Below are positions 49,054-56,664 of a stretch of 57,912 bases of DNA, piece after piece. The DNA is from Eubacteriales bacterium (GTDB lineage: Bacteria; Bacillota; Clostridia; Oscillospirales; CAG-272). Within the stretch, counting starts at the first letter, position 1, and each line of letters starts with the position of its first letter. The translations under genes were made by a program, and so were the position numbers. The notes beneath the pieces are model-generated. The model saw only the letters and a list, made by a program, of their open reading frames with translations. It had not been told where the DNA came from and did no database searches. The stretch covers positions 1-57,912 of the forward strand of contig JAZSMV010000008.1 in the NCBI GenBank assembly GCA_045536065.1. The letters run 5' to 3'.

Positions 49054-49851
49054 TCAGAGTCCGAGCAGAGATGCGTACCAGCTGACAATGGGCCAGCCGA
49101 AGAGCAATGCAAATGCAACGCCTACGGAAATGAAGGGTCCGAAGGGATATTCTCTATCCTTTTCGTCGCCTCTGGCTCTTCTCACGATAAGGAGAATTAT
49201 GCTGGCGCTAACGGATGCGATAAGCATAGCAAAGAGCATTCTCTGCCAACCGAGAAGAAGTCCTGCGACAAAGGCGAACTTTACGTCGCCGAAGCCAAGT
49301 CCCTCTCGCTTAAGGATCAGTATTGCTCCGTAGTAGATGAGCAGGAAGAACAGGCCGAATGCCGCCGCACCGATAAGGTGGTCGTACCATCTGATATTCT
49401 TGTCGAAGAAGATCGCAACTACGCCCGCAATACCGATAAGGATAACGAATCGGTTGTAGATGAGCAGATGCTCAAGATCAATGAAGAAAATACAGATAAG
49501 AACGGATAAAACGATAGCGGAAATTACTGCGTAAACAGGGTTTTTCTCCCAGAAGAGAAAGACCGAAAGGATCCACAGCGCCGCATTGAGTATCTCAACC
49601 GCTATGTATCTCGGAGAGATAGGCTCCTTACACTTTCTGCACTTTCCGCCAAGCATAATGTAGGACAGAACGGGAATGTTGTCATACCACTTAAGCGTGT
49701 AGTCGCATTTTGTGCAATGAGATGCGGGCTTTGACATATTCATATTGTTCGGCAGGCGGTAGATAACCACGTTCAGAAAGCTACCGACACACAGACCGAT
49801 AAGGCCTGCGAGAATATATACGCACATCAGAATAAACTGTTCGCTGGACAT
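49054..49851 (-). CDS. pilD: Prepilin peptidase (A24 family; PilD/ComC-like)
   Basis: Contains GSFLNVVIYRLP, Cys pairs CTKC...CRKC, and GFGDVKF (catalytic Asp). The protein is polytopic. Confidence 0.88.
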   Translation of the reverse strand: MSSEQFILMCVYILAGLIGLCVGSFLNVVIYRLPNNMNMSKPASHCTKCDYTLKWYDNIPVLSYIMLGGKCRKCKEPISPRYIAVEILNAALWILSVFLFWEKNPVYAVISAIVLSVLICIFFIDLEHLLIYNRFVILIGIAGVVAIFFDKNIRWYDHLIGAAAFGLFFLLIYYGAILILKREGLGFGDVKFAFVAGLLLGWQRMLFAMLIASVSASIILLIVRRARGDEKDREYPFGPFISVGVAFALLFGWPIVSWYASLLGL

Positions 49852-49864
49852 AGGCTACCTCCGA

Positions 49865-51328
49865 TTACTTTTTGCCGCCGATCTCGGTGGTGGCAATCTT
49901 CTTGATAACCTCAAGGATCTTCTGAAGCTTGCTCTCACCCTGGGGCTCTGCCTTTGCCTCGCCCTCCTTCTTTGCCGCATCGGGCTTTTCAGCCTGAGGC
50001 TTTGCTACGTGGGCAATTGCGGGGAAGTTGTTGAAGCCGTTGTATGCGTCGGTGAAGAAACCGCCGTAAAGCTCAAGATTCTTCTTAACTACCTCGTTCT
50101 CCTCTGCGGTGAAGAGAGGAAGGAAACGAACGCCGTTTTCCTCTTCCTCAAGGTTAACGAGATCGTAGAGGAAGTTGTACTCCTCGGGCATATTAACGTA
50201 AACCGCCTCGGGATAGCCGATAGAGGAAAGTGCGGGGTTGGATGCAATAAACTCGAGAGTCCACTTCATAAACAGACGGAAGTTCTCGAACATATAGCCC
50301 TCACGGTTGGTGGGAGTGGGACGAAGCATAAACTTAGGAAGCTTACGTGCGGTCTTCTTCGCCTTGCGTGCAAGGAAGTCGCTCTCGCTCTCGTCACCGT
50401 TTTCAGCCTCAACCTCGGCGAGCTCACGCTCAAGCTCCTCGTCATCCTCGTCGTCCTCATCCTCGATCTTACGTCTGCCGGGGAACTCAAGCTCGTCATC
50501 ATCCTCAGACTCGGGGGGAGCTTCCTCGATAACGGTGTTATCGTCGTCCTCCTCAAGAGCCATGTGCTTTGCCTTTGCCTTAGCCTTTGCGTTAAGGATA
50601 AGAAGCTCTGCAGGGCTGTGGTCGAAGATAAGGTCCTCGGGCATTACTCTGGTCTTGTAGAGTGTCTTGTAGCCGAAGGGGAGTGTATAGAAGCCAAAGG
50701 TTCTGCCTCTGACGATAAAGATAATTCTTGCATACTCCTCCTTGATGTCGAGGAGAATAAAGGATGCTCCCTTCAGCTTCTGGTTAAGAGCCATAGCCGA
50801 GTTGGATGCAGCCGATGCGGCGTAGGTGATAGCGCCGATTCCGATCTGATGATCTGCGCAGATCTTCTGCAGATTGAAAAGAATATCCTTTCTTACGGCA
50901 GAAATAGCATAAGTAGACATCTGCTTTGTCTGGTTTGCAAGAACACGGTTGAACTTAAGCTCGGAGCTGTTGCCGTAAATGTTGGACAGCGAAGCTGCGA
51001 GAGAGGAGTCAAGCGCCTTCTTGTTAATGGGGGGCAGATTTACCATATCGGTAAGAACTGCCGAGTCGGGCAGAACTACTGTAACCTGCTGCATATCAAG
51101 ATTGGGATGATCCTCACGGAACTGTCCGAGAACCGCTCCAATCTTGTCGTAAAATTCAGGGGAGAAAGGCTTTGCCTTATAGCCGCTCATCAAGTAGTTG
51201 ATAGAGGACTTGTCCGAGCCAGTCATCGAATAGAGTGAGATTATTTCTCTGTCGGTATCAATGCCGATAACCGACTGTATGTTACTTTTTTTCTTAGCCA
51301 CTTTTTTCGTCCTTTCCGTTAGTTCCAA
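49865..51328 (-). CDS. PilM-like (actin-fold) pilus assembly protein with an internal hyper-acidic insertion and a Lys/Glu-rich tail
   Basis: Contains VIGIDTDREIISL plus the later ILLDIKEEYARIIFI pattern, which fits the PilM/FtsA-like fold. Residues ~257-318 are about 60% Asp/Glu. The call rests on position in the operon and motif resemblance only. Confidence 0.5.
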   Translation of the reverse strand: MELTERTKKVAKKKSNIQSVIGIDTDREIISLYSMTGSDKSSINYLMSGYKAKPFSPEFYDKIGAVLGQFREDHPNLDMQQVTVVLPDSAVLTDMVNLPPINKKALDSSLAASLSNIYGNSSELKFNRVLANQTKQMSTYAISAVRKDILFNLQKICADHQIGIGAITYAASAASNSAMALNQKLKGASFILLDIKEEYARIIFIVRGRTFGFYTLPFGYKTLYKTRVMPEDLIFDHSPAELLILNAKAKAKAKHMALEEDDDNTVIEEAPPESEDDDELEFPGRRKIEDEDDEDDEELERELAEVEAENGDESESDFLARKAKKTARKLPKFMLRPTPTNREGYMFENFRLFMKWTLEFIASNPALSSIGYPEAVYVNMPEEYNFLYDLVNLEEEENGVRFLPLFTAEENEVVKKNLELYGGFFTDAYNGFNNFPAIAHVAKPQAEKPDAAKKEGEAKAEPQGESKLQKILEVIKKIATTEIGGKK

Positions 51329-51699
51329 GAGGTGATTTTGCCGTTATTGTTTAACTTAATTGTTAAAACAAGCTCCAAATTGGAAGTATCAGTAAAATCA
51401 TTTCCCTTGTAAATTTCATATTTCATTTCAGCTTCTGAGTATTTCACTGAATAATTATTATCAATTTCAATTATTACATAATTGCCGGTTTTATAGGTGT
51501 TATCCTGTTTTCCCAGCACGTGCTCACCAATATTATTCACCTCGACCATTTCGTTGAAGTCTTCATAGTCATCGACTCTGAGGGAATTTTGCAGACCCGA
51601 GGTTGACAAAAGCATAATCGTAAACGCCATCATAAGGAACATTACACCGATTGCAAGCTCCATTGCTGCGCCCTTGCGTGATTTTATTAATTTTTTCAA
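51319..51699 (-). CDS. Small pilus-associated protein with a pseudopilin-like N-terminus
   Basis: TTG start 7 nt after AAGGAGGG. Begins MKKLIKSRKG|AAMELAIGVMFLMMAFTIMLL, a hydrophobic helix with the Glu shifted to +4. Overlaps the pilM-like start by 10 nt. Confidence 0.45.
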   Translation of the reverse strand: MKKLIKSRKGAAMELAIGVMFLMMAFTIMLLSTSGLQNSLRVDDYEDFNEMVEVNNIGEHVLGKQDNTYKTGNYVIIEIDNNYSVKYSEAEMKYEIYKGNDFTDTSNLELVLTIKLNNNGKITSWN

Positions 51700-51726
51700 A
51701 TTGTTCCCTCCTTTGTGTGTTTCAAA

Positions 51727-52128
51727 TTAAGCCTTCCCTGTTGGGGAAGGGGGACCGCCCGAGGCGGTGGATGAGGTTCGTTCTATATTCTTTATTATAT
51801 TAGAACAAACGCCATCAAAATTTGTTTTTATATCGTAATTTGTATACCGCAACACAGTATACCCCTGACTGCGAAGAAAACTATCTCTTTGCTTATCGTA
51901 CAATTTGCTGTCGGGTTCATAATGCTGTGATCCGTCGAGCTCAATAATCAATCTTGCAGACGGTATGCAAAAATCCACGATGTAATTGTCAATTACTTTC
52001 TGACGATTTACAACAACATCAAGTTTCTTAAGAAAATCATACCAAAGATGCTTTTCTTCCTTGGTCATATTTTTGCGCAAGGATTGTGCGTATTCTTTTA
52101 GCTCCGGATTGTTGTTGAATGTGCTCAT
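51727..52128 (-). CDS. DUF559 domain protein (Vsr-like / PD-(D/E)xK endonuclease fold)
   Basis: Contains LRKNMTKEEKHLWYDFL, VDFCIPSARLIIELDGSQH and VLRYTNYDI, the DUF559 pattern. The SD (GAGGTG) lies inside the inner TIR box. The last ~15 codons (SSTASGGPPSPTGKA) are read-through into the left arm. Confidence 0.8.
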   Translation of the reverse strand: MSTFNNNPELKEYAQSLRKNMTKEEKHLWYDFLKKLDVVVNRQKVIDNYIVDFCIPSARLIIELDGSQHYEPDSKLYDKQRDSFLRSQGYTVLRYTNYDIKTNFDGVCSNIIKNIERTSSTASGGPPSPTGKA

Positions 52129-52183
52129 TATCTCACCTCATCCGTCGGCTACGCCGCCACCTTCCCCAACAGGGAAGGCTGAA
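51729..52183 (-). mobile_element. DUF559 cassette 1: nuclease gene bounded by ~48-bp hairpin-containing terminal inverted repeats (family A arms)
   Basis: The left arm (51729..51777) is AAGCCTTCCCTGTTGGGGAAGG-GGGACCGCCCGAGGCGGT-GGATGAGGT. The reverse complement of the right arm (52134..52183) is TTCAGCCTTCCCTGTTGGGGAAGG-TGGCGGCGTAGCCGAC-GGATGAGGTG. The outer 21 nt and inner 9 nt are identical, and the middle hairpin differs. Confidence 0.65.
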
Positions 52184-52184
52184 T

Positions 52185-52793
52185 CTATCTCACCGTGTAG
52201 GTGGTTTTTTCAATAAGGAAATCGTTTGTTCCGTCGTTTGTAGCGGTGATTGTGATGGAATTGTCACCAAAATCAACATCGAGAGTAACTTTTACTCGTC
52301 CATCGGTGATGGTATAGGTGTAAACGGAGGTACCCTCAGCAGGATCAGAGATAGAAAACGGAGGGGTATCACCATTCTTATATTCAAGATTTATACTTTT
52401 CGCAAAGCAATTCTCAAAAGTCGTCTTTTTAGTTTCGTTGTTATTGCCACTGGTATTCACCGCATATCTAAAGCATTCGATGGCGTTTTCGGCAATGTTG
52501 GTGGCTTCGATCATATCGATCGTTTCGCCGTGGGTTTTGCTGTCTACGGCAACAACGCCGATAGATACCGCTGTTACGATTACGATAATCGCAAGCGCCA
52601 TGGCAAGCTCTACAATAGTAAAGCCTCGGCGGGAGCCTTTTTCATCAAGCCTTCCCCTTGAGGGGAAGGTGGCGGACGAAGTCCGACGAATGAGGTGTTT
52701 TTCATTAATAGTGTTTTCCACCTCATCAGTCACCTTTGGTGACAGCTTCCCCTCAAGGGGAAGCCTGAATATATCTTTAAAATTCATTTTCAT
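52185..52793 (-). CDS. Minor (pseudo)pilin with an abnormally long ~55-60-aa leader
   Basis: Prepilin motif RRG|FTIVELAMALAIIVIVTAV (Glu+5). Possible in-frame starts are GTG 52811, ATG 52793 (TGAGGT SD) and ATG 52787. The leader-coding part contains the gene-less inverted-repeat element. Confidence 0.6.
   Translation of the reverse strand: MKMNFKDIFRLPLEGKLSPKVTDEVENTINEKHLIRRTSSATFPSRGRLDEKGSRRGFTIVELAMALAIIVIVTAVSIGVVAVDSKTHGETIDMIEATNIAENAIECFRYAVNTSGNNNETKKTTFENCFAKSINLEYKNGDTPPFSISDPAEGTSVYTYTITDGRVKVTLDVDFGDNSITITATNDGTNDFLIEKTTYTVR
52647..52769. mobile_element. Gene-less (MITE/REPIN-like) doublet of family A arms
   Basis: The left arm (52647..52697) is CAAGCCTTCCCCTTGAGGGGAAGG-TGGCGGACGAAGTCCGAC-GAATGAGGTG. 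A 21-bp core follows (TTTTTCATTAATAGTGTTTTC). The reverse complement of the right arm (52719..52769) is TTCAGGCTTCCCCTTGAGGGGAAGC-TGTCACCAAAGGTGAC-TGATGAGGTG. Confidence 0.65.
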
Positions 52794-52803
52794 ATCAGTT
52801 ACC

Positions 52804-53343
52804 TCATTCACCTGCGTAGGGGTTTACACAGAAGGTGTAGGTGTAATTCGTTTTATCAACAGAGTAGTTAATGGTGCAATAGTAAACTGCATCTAGATCT
52901 TGACGAACAGTATCAATCAATTCTCCATTTGCAAGATCAAGATTGGAATGATATGTTTCGTTGGTAATGGGGCTATAAAATGCAAAAGCAAATGTAATGG
53001 ATTCTATATGTTCCAATTCCATGGTGACTTTACTATCTTCGCCATTATATGCAACAATAAATCCGTTATTAAACATTACAAATTTATCACCAAAGGAAAG
53101 TTTACTTACACTTTCAAGATAGGCATCTGTAAGTCCGGAATTACTCTCAACAAATCCCTCGATGATTGATTCGGCGGCGGTGACGTCCTGCATGGCTTCA
53201 AATCTTTCGTTGCTGATTCCCTGTGCGCCGTGCATCATTGAGCTGAATGATACGACCATCGTTGCCGCAATGACAAGGACTGCGAGAACTATAATAAGCT
53301 CGGCAAGGGTTGCGCCCTTTCTGCTATTATTCTTTTTGTTCAT
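52804..53343 (-). CDS. Minor (pseudo)pilin
   Basis: Starts MNKKNNSRKG|ATLAELIIVLAVLVIAATMVV (Glu+5). ATG 53343 has GGAGG upstream. The track extension to 53535 runs through a REP-like hairpin and is rejected. Confidence 0.7.
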   Translation of the reverse strand: MNKKNNSRKGATLAELIIVLAVLVIAATMVVSFSSMMHGAQGISNERFEAMQDVTAAESIIEGFVESNSGLTDAYLESVSKLSFGDKFVMFNNGFIVAYNGEDSKVTMELEHIESITFAFAFYSPITNETYHSNLDLANGELIDTVRQDLDAVYYCTINYSVDKTNYTYTFCVNPYAGE

Positions 53344-53444
53344 AGGCTGCCTCCTTTTTAAAAAATGGGATTTTTTAAGATCTTTTAGAGCTTTAAAATA
53401 TTTTAATAAAAAATTTTCGCACATGTAAAATAAGGAAAAGGATT

Positions 53445-53468
53445 CGTAGGGGCGAGGGTTGCTCGTCC
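53445..53468 (+). repeat. REP-like hairpin CGTAGGGGCGAG-ggtt-GCTCGTCC, followed by T7
   Basis: Shares CGTAGGGGCGA...TCGTCC with 55377..55400. On the plus strand it looks like an intrinsic terminator facing against the operon. Confidence 0.5.
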
Positions 53469-53633
53469 TTTTTTTAATCATTCTCTTTGTTTTACATTTG
53501 CGTTTTTTGTCGGTTTTGGGCGGCTTTTCTACCAAAAATGTAAATTAATGTGTGCATTATCACACAAAAGGCCCGATTGATGCCTGATTTTTCGGAAAAC
53601 GGGCAGCATCATTTTCGGGTCAATAATTGGCAA

Positions 53634-53669
53634 ACAGCACAGCATTCCGTCGTCAGAATGCTGTGCTGT
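53634..53669 (-). terminator. Strong hairpin just after the major pilin gene (probable partial terminator or attenuator)
   Basis: A 14-bp stem ACAGCACAGCATTC / GAATGCTGTGCTGT with an 8-nt loop. The U-tract on the minus strand is weak (TTTGCC). Confidence 0.45.
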
Positions 53670-53708
53670 CAAAAACCTTTCCGAGTGGTTTTTAGAGTAT
53701 GTTAGATA

Positions 53709-54050
53709 TTAGTTGCTTGCAGCGGGATTAAGAACTGTGTAATTCTCAGGAGTAGTAGGCTGAGTGGTGGGCTGGTCTTCATCAATATCAACGATATTAT
53801 TACCAGTTACAGTGTAGTAGTGACCATCAACAACAATGAAACCATTAAGGCCGGTACCAAGTGTAGAAGGATCTGCATCAATCATAAGTTCGGTGAGAAT
53901 GTTTCTAGCTTCCTGGTCACGAGAGGACTCGTTAGCCTGTTCGATAATGGAACCAAAGGTAGGAATAAGAACTGCGGAAAGAATTGCAATAACTGCGATA
54001 ACGATTACGAGCTCAACGATAGTAAAGCCCTTCTTGTTGTTTCTCTTCAT
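53709..54050 (-). CDS. Major type IV pilin (prepilin with N-terminal cleavage/methylation motif)
   Basis: Starts MKRNNKKG|FTIVELVIVIAVIAILSAVLIP (Glu+5). At 113 aa it is the first gene of the operon. Confidence 0.85.
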   Translation of the reverse strand: MKRNNKKGFTIVELVIVIAVIAILSAVLIPTFGSIIEQANESSRDQEARNILTELMIDADPSTLGTGLNGFIVVDGHYYTVTGNNIVDIDEDQPTTQPTTPENYTVLNPAASN

Positions 54051-54222
54051 TGTGAAATTCTCCTAAAATTTGTTTTTTGTTTTTATTTTTGACACAGGCT
54101 CAAAATTATGTAGGCGACAGTGCATCCACTCGGAAGGTGCGCCGTCGTCGTTCTGTTTTGATTCCTGCAGTATCAAAATCTGCGCTAGCAATATGCACTT
54201 TTTCAGTGCTTACTGCCCTTTT

Positions 54223-54251
54223 AGTATACAGTTTTTCGCCGTTTTTGTCAA
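54223..54251 (-). promoter_or_regulatory. Promoter of the pilus operon
   Basis: On the minus strand: TTGACA (54251..54246), a 17-nt spacer, then TATACT (54228..54223). The leader is about 165 nt. Confidence 0.5.
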
Positions 54252-54333
54252 TATATATTAAATATTTTATTTCTTAAAAAATATTAACTCGATTTTAATT
54301 AACAGGACTGTTAATTAAAAATGGAGTAAGAGT

Positions 54334-54848
54334 AAGGCTCCCTTGTGTAAAGGGAGCTCCCGCATAGCGGGTGAGGGATTGTCAATCCTCCTTGTTTAAA
54401 TTAATTCTTGATTTTGTTATCTTGTCAATATAACAACAAACACCGTCAAAATTTTTATTCAATTCATAATTCAATATTCTAATCACTTCAATACCAAACT
54501 TCTCAAGATATTCAGTTCTTTCAGCGTCGTACTGCTTTCCTTCCGGTGTATAATGCTCCGATCCGTCAAGCTCTATAACCAGCTTTGCCTCTGAAGAATA
54601 AAAATCAGCAATGTATCTTCCAAGAACCTTTTGCCGTGAAAAGCGAATTGGATATGAACGCAGAAAATCATACCAAAGGTGCTTTTCTTCTTTGGTCATG
54701 TTTTTTCTCAATTCTTTTGCAAAAGGAACCAAATTCTTATTGTGTTTTCTTTCCATACAATCCACCTTTCGATTCGCTGCTTAACACAAGGGAGCCAACA
54801 ATCCCTCAGTCGCCTTTGGCGCCAGCTCCCTTTACACAAGGGAGCCTA
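54334..54848 (-). mobile_element. DUF559 cassette 2: nuclease gene bounded by ~48-bp hairpin-containing terminal inverted repeats (family B arms)
   Basis: The left arm (54334..54381) is AAGGCTCCCTTGTGTAAAGGGAGC-TCCCGCATAGCGGGT-GAGGGATTG. The reverse complement of the right arm (54799..54848) is TAGGCTCCCTTGTGTAAAGGGAGC-TGGCGCCAAAGGCGACT-GAGGGATTG. An extra half-site ACACAAGGGAGCC lies at 54785..54797. Confidence 0.65.
54382..54756 (-). CDS. DUF559 domain protein (Vsr-like endonuclease fold), paralog of 51727..52128
   Basis: Contains the same LRKNMTKEEKHLWYDFL block, then ADFYSSEAKLVIELDGSEH and VIRILNYEL. I prefer ATG 54756 over the GTG at 54765. Confidence 0.8.
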   Translation of the reverse strand: MERKHNKNLVPFAKELRKNMTKEEKHLWYDFLRSYPIRFSRQKVLGRYIADFYSSEAKLVIELDGSEHYTPEGKQYDAERTEYLEKFGIEVIRILNYELNKNFDGVCCYIDKITKSRINLNKED

Positions 54849-55349
54849 GAAGCCGCTGATCGGCAGATCCTCGTTATCCTCGCCTTTGGTGATTTTACGA
54901 ATCTCGACGTAGTAGGACATATTCTCGTTTACGGTGACGAGGGCTCGGTCGCCAACACGCTTGCCCATAAGGGCGCTACCCAGGGGGGATTCCTTGCTGA
55001 TGAAGCCCTTCAGGGCGTTCTGACGAAGGGTGGTGACTATCTGTATCTCCTTCTCTGTCTTCATACGCTCGTTATAGATCAGTACACGGTCAAAGAGGGC
55101 TACCGCATCGGGTGAGTCCTTGATGTCGATAACCTTGGCTGTGCGGATCATTGCCTCAAGGTAACGGATGCGGCTCTCGTTTTTGCGCTTTAAGTACTTC
55201 GCCTCCTTGTATTCGGCATTTTCCGACAGGTCGCCAAGCTCTCTGGTGCGCTTCAGCTCAGCGCCAAGCTCGGGCGCTAAGATGACCTTGCGATAGCGGA
55301 TCTCCTCCTCCATCTTTTTTATATCTACTTCTGTAAGCTCATCGTACAT
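54846..55349 (-). CDS. greA: Transcription elongation factor GreA
   Basis: Contains MYDELTEVDIKKMEEEIRYRK...GDLSENAEYKEAK...SPLGSALMGKRVGD. ATG 55349 has GAGGT upstream. The track start at 55391 runs into a REP hairpin. Confidence 0.88.
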   Translation of the reverse strand: MYDELTEVDIKKMEEEIRYRKVILAPELGAELKRTRELGDLSENAEYKEAKYLKRKNESRIRYLEAMIRTAKVIDIKDSPDAVALFDRVLIYNERMKTEKEIQIVTTLRQNALKGFISKESPLGSALMGKRVGDRALVTVNENMSYYVEIRKITKGEDNEDLPISGF

Positions 55350-55376
55350 AGTTTTACCTCGGTGTGAAATAAAAAT

Positions 55377-55400
55377 CGTAGGGGCGACCATTGGTCGTCC
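55377..55400 (+). repeat. REP-like hairpin CGTAGGGGCGACC-att-GGTCGTCC
   Basis: Second copy of the CGTAGGGGCGA...TCGTCC hairpin, located between the ackA terminator and the greA start. Confidence 0.5.
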
Positions 55401-55404
55401 GTAT

Positions 55405-55431
55405 TCAAAAGGGCTGTCAAGGTGACAGCCC
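55405..55431 (-). terminator. Terminator after ackA
   Basis: The minus strand reads GGGCTGTCACCTTGACAGCCC followed by TTTTG. Confidence 0.55.
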
Positions 55432-55470
55432 TTTGCTTATATATATTATATAAGGAAGTTTTTTGTCGAA

Positions 55471-56664
55471 TTAGCCATTTACAATAGCAAGAGTATCTCT
55501 TGCGATAACAAGCTCCTCGTTGGTGGGAATTACAAATACCTTGATGGGAGAGTCGGGAGTAGAGATCTCTACCTCTTCGCCACGGATCTTGTTCTTCTCT
55601 GCGTCGATCTTAACGCCGAGGAATGCAAGCTTCTCACCGAGCTTTGCTCTGTAATGGCCTGCGTTCTCACCGATACCGCCGGTGAATACGATCGCATCAG
55701 CGCCGCCCATTGCTACTATGTAGGAGCCAACGTTCTTTGCGATCTGGTGAGAGTACATATCCTCACAGAGAATCGCCCTCTTGTCGCCTGCCTCTGCAAG
55801 ATGACCGATCTCCTGGTTATCAGAGGTCTTGCCGGAGATACCAAGCATACCGGACTTCTTGTTCATCATCTTATCAATATCGTCTGCGGTGGTAAGCTCG
55901 CCCTTACGCATAAGGTAAGGAATGATAGCGGGGTCGATGTTACCCGAACGGGTACCCATCATAATACCCTCAAGAGGAGTTACACCCATAGAGGTATCGA
56001 AGCACTTGCCGCCCTTAACCGCTGCGAAGGATGCGCCGTTACCAAGGTGACAGGTAACTACGTTGCACTGATCAGCGGGCTTGCCGAGCATAGCGATCGC
56101 TCTCTCGCTTACGTAACGGTGAGACGTACCGTGGAAGCCGTAACGACGGATCTTATACTTCTCATAGTACTCATAGGGGAGTGCGTACATATAAGACGCC
56201 TCGGGCATGGTCTGGTGGAAGGATGTATCGAATACTGCAACCTGGGGAACGCCCATAAGCTTCTCGCAAACAACGATACCGTTAAGGTTTGCGGGATTGT
56301 GGAGAGGCGCAAGGTCAGCGCACTCTGCGATGATCTCCTTAACCTCGTCGGTTACAAGAACGGAAGAAGCAAACTTCTCGCCGCCGTGAACAACTCTGTG
56401 ACCTACTGCGCCGATCTCGGAAACCGACTTGATAACGCCCATATTCTCGTCAACAAGGGTGTTGAGAACAAGTCCCAGTGCCTCTGCGTGAGTAGGCATT
56501 GCGATAGCTGCCTTATAATCCTCTCTGCCGGGAACCTTGAACTTGAAGCCGGACTTACCGCCGATCTCCTCACAGATACCCTTTGCAATTACCTGCTCGT
56601 TGTCCATATCAATAAGCTGGAACTTGAGCGAGGAAGAGCCTGCATTGATAACTAAAACCTTCAT
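55471..56664 (-). CDS. ackA: Acetate kinase
   Basis: Starts MKVLVINAGSSSLKFQL. Also has RRYGFHGTSH and FTGGIGEN, with a length of 397 aa. Confidence 0.92.
   Translation of the reverse strand: MKVLVINAGSSSLKFQLIDMDNEQVIAKGICEEIGGKSGFKFKVPGREDYKAAIAMPTHAEALGLVLNTLVDENMGVIKSVSEIGAVGHRVVHGGEKFASSVLVTDEVKEIIAECADLAPLHNPANLNGIVVCEKLMGVPQVAVFDTSFHQTMPEASYMYALPYEYYEKYKIRRYGFHGTSHRYVSERAIAMLGKPADQCNVVTCHLGNGASFAAVKGGKCFDTSMGVTPLEGIMMGTRSGNIDPAIIPYLMRKGELTTADDIDKMMNKKSGMLGISGKTSDNQEIGHLAEAGDKRAILCEDMYSHQIAKNVGSYIVAMGGADAIVFTGGIGENAGHYRAKLGEKLAFLGVKIDAEKNKIRGEEVEISTPDSPIKVFVIPTNEELVIARDTLAIVNG

Follow-up and report, generated by a model that had tools for sequence, protein, structure and literature searches.

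An inverted hairpin doublet, probably derived from a DUF559 cassette, in the leader-coding region of a minor type IV pilin gene

How can a minor pilin gene carry a repeat of some 120 bp between its start codon and the codons of its mature protein and still be read? The question is raised by contig JAZSMV010000008.1 of a Eubacteriales bacterium (assembly GCA_045536065.1), of which positions 1 to 57,912 of the forward strand, here called the window, were analysed. The window holds a minus-strand type IV pilus operon, and within the leader-peptide coding region of one of its minor pilins there lies a gene-less pair of inverted hairpin arms, the doublet (52647..52769, minus strand). In our judgement it is very probable that this doublet is a non-autonomous, internally deleted form of a cassette that carries a DUF559 nuclease gene, that it is read through in frame, and that the leader containing it is cleaved off by the prepilin peptidase PilD.

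The doublet and its place in the prepilin leader

What is the doublet made of? Two arms of ~50 nt oppose one another across 21 nt, each consisting of an outer hairpin, an inner hairpin and a GATGAGGTG/CACCTCATC box. All parts are on the minus strand and are described here in pilin orientation. The 5′ arm (52719..52769) encodes RLPLEGKLSPKVTDEV; its outer hairpin is GCTTCCCC-TTGA-GGGGAAGC (52745-52764), its inner hairpin GTCACC-AAA-GGTGAC (52729-52743) and its box TGATGAGGTG (52719-52728), the full arm from 52769 to 52719 being TTCAGGCTTCCCC-TTGA-GGGGAAGC TGTCACC-AAA-GGTGAC TGATGAGGTG. An A/T-rich spacer of 21 nt, GAAAACACTATTAATGAAAAA (52698..52718), encodes ENTINEK. The 3′ arm (52647..52697), which encodes HLIRRTSSATFPSRGRL, has the box CACCTCATTC (52688-52697), the inner hairpin CGGAC-TTC-GTCCG (52673-52685) and the outer hairpin CCTTCCCC-TCAA-GGGGAAGG (52650-52669); in full, from 52697 to 52647, it reads CACCTCATTC GTCGGAC-TTC-GTCCGCC ACCTTCCCC-TCAA-GGGGAAGGCTT.

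The two arms are inverted copies of each other, identical at 38 of 53 aligned positions (z = 7.6), a score equalled in 0 of 500 shuffles. They are also akin to the corresponding arms of the DUF559 cassette at 51726-52184, with 37/52 (z 7.4) and 37/56 (z 5.4) positions identical. The outer-hairpin pattern occurs four times in the window, against 0.17 occurrences expected by chance. As a single strand the doublet is predicted to fold into a four-way junction composed of the outer stem, the two inner hairpins and a box–box stem, with a free energy of −68 kcal/mol as RNA (z −8.8) and −37.8 kcal/mol as DNA (z −8.3). Short, without coding capacity of its own and with terminal inverted repeats, it has the properties of a miniature inverted-repeat transposable element (MITE); as an inverted doublet of hairpins like those of repetitive extragenic palindromes (REPs), it also has the form of a REPIN. 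The Rfam 15 covariance models gave no relevant match over 51000-55500 at E ≤ 1. A hammerhead ribozyme, for which the string CUGAUGAG in the 5′ arm was considered, was rejected: the GAAA core is absent, the motif is not kept in the cassette arms and Rfam returned no match.

Are the hairpins maintained as structures? An earlier note on this DNA, which had the coordinates, the arm sequences and the 21-nt separation right, held that the outer hairpins of the doublet and of the neighbouring cassette differ by paired changes. They differ instead by one extra base pair and another loop, the doublet having 8 bp and TTGA where the cassette has 7 bp and TGTTG. Compensatory variation sits in the inner hairpins, for which 35 distinct arms, taken one by one with extraction and shuffling of their hairpins, show 19 different stem sequences, nearly all perfectly paired. 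In addition, the orthologous outer stem of the cassette in a related locus, L030 (CCTTCTC...GAGAAGG), carries a compensatory C>T / G>A pair. Because the inner stems vary yet stay paired, and because of the pair in L030, we conclude that the hairpins are selected as structures.

Where in the pilin does the doublet fall? The protein has the marks of a type IV prepilin with a class III signal: Gly at −1, Phe at +1, Glu at +5, about 20 hydrophobic residues, the processing site RRG↓FTIVELAMALAIIVIVTAVSIGVV (the arrow denotes cleavage), matches to N_methyl / TIGR02532, and a prepilin peptidase encoded in the same locus. The mature pilin, which bears the N_methyl / class III signal motif, is encoded by 52185..52622 (minus strand), from FTIVEL through the stop codon. 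The leader-coding region occupies 52623..52793 (minus strand) and comprises 57 codons, from ATG 52793 to Gly−1 (52623-52625). Seven nucleotides before this ATG stands a Shine–Dalgarno sequence, GAGGT (52801..52805, minus strand), which shares bases with the stop codon (52804-52806) of the upstream pilin gene and which is kept, directly after that stop, as GGAGGTAA-N6-7-ATG in the related loci L001, L028-L031 and L033-L035. The doublet lies between this conserved start signal and the RRG↓FTIVEL site, in frame and stop-free, and is read as prepilin residues F9..L49; in the window pilin there is no in-frame ATG, GTG or TTG between the element and the G↓F cleavage site. Judged from sequence, the start with biological meaning is ATG 52793. 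The stop-free translation of the doublet given in the earlier note proved exact, and its leader of ~55-60 aa agrees with the 57 aa counted from this ATG; its start of the open reading frame (ORF) at 52811 has to be given up, for the pilin frame is indeed open from that GTG, but the codon lies within the upstream pilin gene.

Published prepilin leaders measure 6-26 aa, or ~15-30 aa in type IVb; the leader remains cytoplasmic and is cut after Gly (PMC4471445). Against a range of 6-26 aa, with ~30 aa as the type IVb maximum, the leader has 57 aa here and 28-84 aa in the insertion-bearing relatives. It is hydrophilic and net-positive. The segments that flank the element, MKMNFKDIF and DEKGSRRG, are remnants of an ordinary leader of ~17-21 aa (compare MKKIFGKIFRLPIDEKSSRGG↓F in L033).

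Do relatives that lack the doublet have a long leader too? We retrieved 99 pilin homologs, with syntenic DNA for eight. L030 represents the empty site, with a leader of 12 aa, MAKKNKNKSRRG↓F (ATG GCA AAG AAA AAT AAG AAC AAG TCG CGC CGC GGC TTT). Peptides derived from the arms or from other repeats occur in 41 of the 99, with leaders of 28-84 aa: both arms in 28, the 5′ arm only in 2, the 3′ arm only in 9 and another REP family in 2. A further 57 have no repeat peptide, and their leaders are shorter than 20 aa in 51 cases and 20-34 aa, lacking any recognisable repeat, in six; one homolog looks N-truncated. The arms themselves recur: they surround DUF559 genes in the window and at 10 or more further loci, and gene-less doublets of such arms are present in other genomes. 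The orthologs thereby support the earlier note in its claim of an in-frame insertion, which it would have withdrawn had repeat-free orthologs shared the long leader or had the arms been confined to a single element.

The relatives also show the element in various states. A doublet of the type LPLEGKLSPKVTDEV...HLIR is found in the window, L001, L029 and L034, while the leader doublets of L028 and L035 have different hairpins (SLPCPGRWHGRAVTDEV and SLPYWGRWHGKAVTDEV, respectively); L031 retains the 3′ arm alone and L033 merely some nine nucleotides, read as RLP. Two distant homologs, P0085 and P0098, have leaders of 34 aa (MKKFVIAKLKGAFKKSADRSTRSTRKHISNPRRG↓VSIVEL) in which we recognise neither arm nor REP peptide. 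In L036 the sequence upstream of the leader doublet is argG-argH-argC rather than the pilus operon, and the breakpoint (L036:3952-4001) coincides exactly with the left end of the element (A|GGCTTCCCC). Either two doublets recombined ectopically to give this junction, which affects homolog P0013, or the metagenome assembly was joined there at a repeated copy; in both cases further copies of the element are implied in that genome.

The DUF559 cassettes and the origin of the doublet

Where do the arms come from? Only 500 bp from the doublet, downstream in pilin orientation, cassette 1 (51726..52184, minus strand) places a DUF559 gene (51727-52128) between arms of the same family, A (52134-52184 and 51726-51778). 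Its 5′ box is the Shine–Dalgarno sequence of the DUF559 gene, and the ORF reads through the 3′ arm, ending in the tail TSSTASGGPPSPTGKA. Cassette 2 (54335..54849, minus strand) places a second DUF559 gene (54382-54765) between arms of family B, the architecture of which is that of family A while the sequence is different (GGCTCCCTTGTGTAAAGGGAGC, box TGAGGGATTG / CAATCCCTCA). Both genes match PF04480 well above its cut-off of 20.6 bits (110 and 101 bits) and match PDB 3HRL at E = 8e-13. The order of parts in a cassette is outer hairpin, inner hairpin, G(G/T)ATGAGGTG box, ~5 nt, ATG...DUF559...(C)ACCTCATCC box, inner hairpin, outer hairpin and stop. We found this arrangement around DUF559 genes twice in the window and in L001-L003, L028-L030, L034, L036 and L037, the last an unrelated context, Tex-DUF559-ORF-EamA. 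This one query has 7381 DUF559 homologs at E ≤ 1e-10, and in many of the best 120 the C-terminal tail is encoded by an arm, for example as TSSTASGPPSPQGEG or TSSVTYGATFPNREG; a crude motif counted 43 such tails, and inspection added further variants.

The spacer of the doublet resembles the last DUF559 codons ahead of the 3′ box (AAYGAA-A | CCTCATCC), and the doublet therefore looks like an internal deletion of the DUF559 gene. The arms and the DUF559 sequence co-vary, family A against family B, and within the window the family-A arms are confined to the pilus operon.

Two observations on the cassettes may be set beside these. In cassette 1 the 5′ box GGATGAGGTG (52134-52143), the Shine–Dalgarno sequence of the DUF559 gene, is complementary to the 3′ box AACCTCATCC (51769-51778) in the last codons of the ORF, which suggests long-range sequestration of the ribosome-binding site of the predicted nuclease. 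In L037 (2930-3580) the DUF559 cassette is followed by an ORF of 189 aa without a Pfam match, and this by a second, identical 5′ arm that the ORF enters (...HNKPSP, then stop); the arms may carry cargo other than DUF559.

Does the cassette spread? Between pilin 1 and pilin 2 of L028, in flanks 93% identical, stands an extra cassette that the window lacks. It is 96.4% identical to the downstream cassette of L028 itself, as against 88% to the orthologous cassette of the window, and we conclude from these identities that the DUF559 cassette spreads by duplication within genomes. The ackA-greA interval holds an extra arm in L028 and a complete extra doublet in L029, neither of them present in the window. 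Family-A copies number one doublet and one cassette in the window, two doublets and one cassette within 8.5 kb in L029, and three doublets and one cassette within 15 kb in the metagenome-assembled genome RGIG4006. All DUF559 cassettes in the loci examined point the same way as the operon that hosts them, and the 5′ flanks of 14 elements show a weak preference for A/T-rich ...TTNA|. An intergenic doublet in L007 (L007:329, within 290-500) lies between two similar stretches of 22 nt, TATTGCTCAGGATTATAGATT and TATTGCTCGGGATGACAGATT, which no other element shows; they could be a long target duplication or reflect insertion into a local repeat.

Could the doublet instead be a REPIN mobilised by a REP-associated tyrosine transposase (RAYT, of the Y1 type), the DUF559 gene being a mere passenger between REPs? 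The doublet-of-hairpins architecture would fit, as would the lack of a target-site duplication, which is usual for elements of the IS200/IS605 type. These genomes do have RAYT genes, and the slot of cassette 1 is filled by one in both L031 and L035. That RAYT gene, however, has another REP, GTAGGGGCGACCATTGGTCGTCC, both on its flanks and inside it, and this REP is itself a dispersed family, whereas family-A and family-B arms flank DUF559 in every case examined (at least 14 cassettes), with the box as Shine–Dalgarno sequence, with the ORF running through the 3′ arm, and with arms and DUF559 sequence varying together. We therefore regard mobilisation by a RAYT as improbable.

The RAYT genes deserve a description of their own. 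In L031 (4539-5117) and L035 (1391-1876) the gene, an IS200-like Y1 transposase (GAYFVTICT...PDHVHLL...YIYENP), has the REP hairpin on its flanks and also, in frame and twice, within its coding sequence (VGATIGRP, NGRPMVAPT). The window has two copies of this REP (53444-53473 and 55376-55405), and in the pilin leaders of P0029, P0038 and P0052 it is read as TTNGRPY / GRPKNKRAK.

How widely does the element occur? When genome contigs were scanned with the pilin alignment, the matches listed contained only distant pilins, with cassettes or doublets in L003, L007 and L024 as by-products; metagenome contigs scanned with the conserved mature segment gave one irrelevant locus. A word-indexed search with the 42-aa element peptide returned one spurious ORF, and did not recover the pilins themselves. 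An exhaustive search of representative proteins with a 41-aa peptide gave ten matches, namely two pilins, one repeat-protein false positive and, for the rest, short ORFs over doublets or arrays, and thus no second bona fide protein family with the insert. In a pattern scan of viral contigs the full architecture was present in one of 120 loci. Among the proteins P0222, P0224, P0227 and P0228, from other genomes, we met tandem arrays of related doublets or arms that had been called as repetitive pseudo-proteins, e.g. FPLWGKLSPQVTDEG...LIRRARAPPSPKGGRL three times over.

For DUF559 itself, to our knowledge a very large family of unknown function without known transposase activity, these loci offer a concrete lead: the gene is consistently packaged between conserved hairpin arms with co-varying stems, is duplicated within a genome and leaves gene-less doublets behind, which is the signature of a mobile or selfish cassette. 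A literature search for a link between DUF559 and repeats or mobility found nothing relevant. It is conceivable, and we put it forward tentatively, that DUF559 nucleases and their two-hairpin-plus-box arms make up an unrecognised class of selfish elements in Clostridia, REPIN-like but with a Vsr-fold PD-(D/E)XK nuclease in place of the Y1 transposase and with arms built to be translatable. The arms would then be the substrate of the nuclease, for instance as a four-way junction or cruciform; pairing between 5′ box and 3′ box would gate translation of the nuclease; the gene-less doublets would be non-autonomous offspring; and translatable arms would persist in coding regions such as a prepilin leader, where selection would preserve their structure.

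Probable translation of the doublet and possible selection upon it

How might the pilin have survived the insertion? Under the reading we prefer, in which a deleted DUF559 cassette lies in the leader, the full cassette consists of outer and inner hairpins, the GATGAGGTG box serving as Shine–Dalgarno sequence, the DUF559 ORF, the CACCTCATC box and again inner and outer hairpins. The element probably moved already as a doublet, because the stop codon of a full cassette would sever the pilin from its only start. It would have entered an ordinary leader of ~17-21 aa past the first ~9 codons, ahead of ...GSRRG↓F. Since the sole start signal is upstream, ribosomes would have to read through the element, and survival would be limited to those insertions, and those later indels, that keep the single open frame. 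The 57-aa leader would stay in the cytoplasm and be removed by the PilD of the operon after Gly57, the mature pilin being unchanged; the doublet would have been kept since it fell in the one open frame of a cleaved, cytoplasmic segment.

Is the frame in fact maintained? Only one of the three frames of the 5′ arm is open, and it is the frame used in all 30 homologs that have this arm. The pilin frame is open in five of five leader doublets, whereas three of four intergenic doublets of other loci have stops in all six frames. In L034 a second element is nested inside the 3′ outer hairpin, likewise in frame, giving a leader of 81 aa. The 3′ outer hairpin is read as TFPSRGRL in the window and as TPSPRGEG in L029, an offset that is made good by differences of 1 nt within the inner hairpin and of 14 nt 3′ of the element. 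All nested insertions and partial deletions at the leader preserve the frame. The doublet is an in-frame palindromic insertion like those of the Rickettsia palindromic elements (RPEs): inside an ORF, stop-free, and in a host gene under selection. Given the conserved Shine–Dalgarno sequence and ATG, the lack of a later start, the compensating indels, the in-frame nested insertions and the purifying selection on the mature part, it is almost certain that ribosomes translate the doublet together with the rest of the leader, which PilD would then remove.

Might the pilin gene nevertheless be a decaying pseudogene, its open frame a leftover? A leader far beyond the known range of lengths could be taken as a sign of decay. 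Over the first 58 codons of the mature pilin, however, the ratio of non-synonymous to synonymous divergence (dN/dS) among the insertion-bearing lineages is 0.07-0.2, about 0.1, with dS up to ~1.6; this purifying selection means that the pilin gene is functional. The frame has moreover been maintained through many independent indels, and the cleavage motif and Glu+5 are intact. We give the pseudogene almost no credence.

What of selection on the element itself? Third-codon divergence is lower inside the element than in the strongly constrained mature N-terminus in two comparisons, 5/27 vs 28/58 (p = 0.0095) and 7/30 vs 35/58 (p = 0.0015), and the three other informative comparisons lean the same way (p 0.08-0.12). 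Among the window, L029 and L034 the stems of the 5′ arm show no substitution despite a dS of 0.9-1.6, changes being limited to the loops. From these counts we conclude that the arm nucleotides evolve more slowly than synonymous sites and that the element is not simply decaying, which points to selection on structure or to gene conversion with sister copies. The earlier note had suggested that an insertion in a removable leader could be harmless; with arm nucleotides more conserved than synonymous sites the word is perhaps too weak.

The same data, together with the compensatory pair in the outer stem of the L030 cassette and the very stable fold, could mean that the doublet now serves here as a cis-acting structure, of RNA (or DNA), and that selection retains it in this co-opted role, translation being a side-effect. 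Such a structure might throttle translation of the minor pilin, fix the stoichiometry of the subunits, or serve as a site of RNA stability or of RNase III action. But several lineages (L031, L033 and the P0033/P0042 types) have lost one arm or most of the element and yet keep the pilin; conservation could reflect gene conversion, a near-identical arm lying 3 kb away in L029; and the loop positions are the third-codon positions, so that coding and structural constraints are inseparable. We consider co-option rather unlikely; it is compatible with a deleted, translated DUF559 cassette.

Several observations weigh against the reading as a translated, cassette-derived insertion. Beginning 27 nt past the start codon, a structure of −68 kcal/mol could be an obstacle to translation or a target of RNase III. 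The 5′ box contains an in-frame GTG, with AAGGTGA 8 nt upstream, that could be an internal start, in which case only the 3′ half would be translated; in L036/P0013, which lacks the upstream part, a gene caller picked the corresponding GTG. The homologs were found via called proteins, which biases the sample to intact frames, although disrupted genes should still appear as N-truncated calls, and only P0089 and P0013 look so. There is a single doublet within the 58-kb window. DUF559 is, so far as we know, not a transposase, even though the element that carries it, with the same arms, duplicates within a genome; one DUF559 protein (P0180), found on 24 contigs, is always in the same context, a sign of low mobility. 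Finally, the flanks of 14 elements show no consistent target-site duplication, and no precise pair of empty and filled sites defines the ends.

If translation did start at that GTG, or 3′ of the element, the doublet would wholly or partly be 5′ untranslated or intergenic sequence and the open frame upstream of it fortuitous. To the GTG may be added an out-of-frame ATG past the element (cTTGATGAAAAAGG) that, given a 6-base A-run, would yield the canonical MKKGSRRG↓F. A displaced native start, hidden by a sequencing error, was accordingly tried as an explanation. It was ruled out, as was a frameshift: the A5 run is the same in three assemblies, and L033 has IDEKSS at the place of the window's LDEKGS. 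Two metagenome assemblies, made independently, agree in the run and throughout the leader, and differ from the window by four substitutions, all synonymous in the pilin frame. Because the run is invariant and L033 has its counterpart, DEKGSRRG is, on this comparison, ancestral leader rather than a displaced start, and the ATG is coincidental. As to the GTG, both it and its Shine–Dalgarno sequence are buried in stems, the equivalent of the latter is absent from arms of the L028/L035 type, the 5′ arm stands in its sole open frame in 30 of 30 carriers, no in-frame start follows the element, and the empty-site ortholog L030 uses the same upstream Shine–Dalgarno sequence and ATG. An internal start is in our view very unlikely.

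If the doublet is translated from ATG 52793, as we prefer, the locus amounts to a natural experiment on the capacity of prepilin leaders: leaders of 57-84 aa, built from repeats, have kept their frame over deep divergence. With such lengths, targeting to the membrane and cleavage by PilD would have to tolerate leaders two to three times as long as any described. The leader offers selfish DNA a safe harbour in a tightly packed operon. Annotation pipelines either accept the long ORF silently or mis-start such genes; the arm-encoded peptides LPLEGKLSPKVTDEV, HLIRQ..PSPRGEG and TSSTASGPPSPQGEG serve as flags for leaders or tails derived from repeats.

Known counterparts and the surrounding operon

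Which known elements does the doublet resemble? In behaviour the closest are the RPEs and the intragenic MITEs (ERIC, BOX, Correia), in which too a gene-less palindrome lies in frame and is translated within a host protein under selection (PMC10969869). Unlike these, the present element belongs to an unrelated sequence family in a clostridial host, sits in a segment that is cleaved off rather than in the mature protein, has a gene-carrying version with the same ends (DUF559) and shows no target-site duplication. In architecture the closest are the REPINs, where hairpin repeats in inverted orientation pair into a longer hairpin and also flank a gene, and where stems co-vary. The earlier note's word REPIN-like is therefore apt for the architecture but not for the partner gene: the flanked gene is a Vsr-like PD-(D/E)XK nuclease, DUF559, and not a Y1 transposase, so that the defining test of a REPIN/RAYT system fails. 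Each arm moreover has two hairpins and a box that doubles as the ribosome-binding site of the gene, and the copy number appears low.

Double-hairpin elements and GC clusters of fungal mitochondria are mobile two-hairpin modules, sometimes in coding regions and near mobile endonuclease ORFs; they differ in being organellar, unrelated in sequence and without DUF559. Homing endonuclease genes, free-standing or intron-borne, among them the Vsr-like I-Bth0305I family (PMC3239194), share with the cassettes a small selfish Vsr/PD-(D/E)XK nuclease gene that is co-oriented in host operons, a ribosome-binding site that can be sequestered by RNA pairing, and duplication to nearby sites. Here, by contrast, there is no intron, intein or recognised target site and cleavage by the nuclease is a prediction, while known homing endonuclease genes have neither structured inverted-repeat arms nor gene-less doublets. 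The class III prepilins with long leaders (type IVb, Flp) have, as here, a hydrophilic positive leader that ends in Gly, followed by F-T-x-x-E and a hydrophobic helix, and a peptidase in the operon; the leader of 57 aa here, and of up to 84 aa in relatives, differs in length and in that the excess is repeat-derived. In-frame palindromic insertions are thus known; what is new is the location in a prepilin leader, with record leader lengths, and the DUF559-associated family of elements.

The operon runs in the order GreA, a promoter-like site, three pilin genes, a pilin-like gene, a PilM-like gene, PilD, PilC and PilB. The prepilin peptidase gene (PilD; A24_N_bact and Peptidase_A24) is at 49054..49851 (minus strand), and its product is the enzyme expected to cleave the leader. 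The promoter-like site, TTGACA-17-TATACT (54223..54251, minus strand), is of near-consensus sigma-70 type with 11 of 12 matches, stands 5′ of the first pilin gene and is found in the orthologous loci L028-L031 as well. Cassette 2 lies upstream of this site, outside the pilus transcript; the doublet and cassette 1 lie within it.

The intergenic slots of this region harbour other elements. In L029 (1700-2270) the slot of cassette 2 is taken by a gene for a PF05635 protein (23S rRNA intervening-sequence protein) bracketed by short tandem repeats of the CTCTGCA/TGCAGAG type, and repeats of this type also come after the DUF559 cassette of L003 (downstream of 3297); gene and repeats look like a third type of small selfish cassette in the same slots. 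In the empty-site relative the spacer from GreA to the promoter (L030:1905-2860) consists of ~950 bp of uncalled DNA crowded with several hairpin repeat families (REP, CCTTCCC-type and GGCTCCC-type), and resembles a junkyard of decayed elements.

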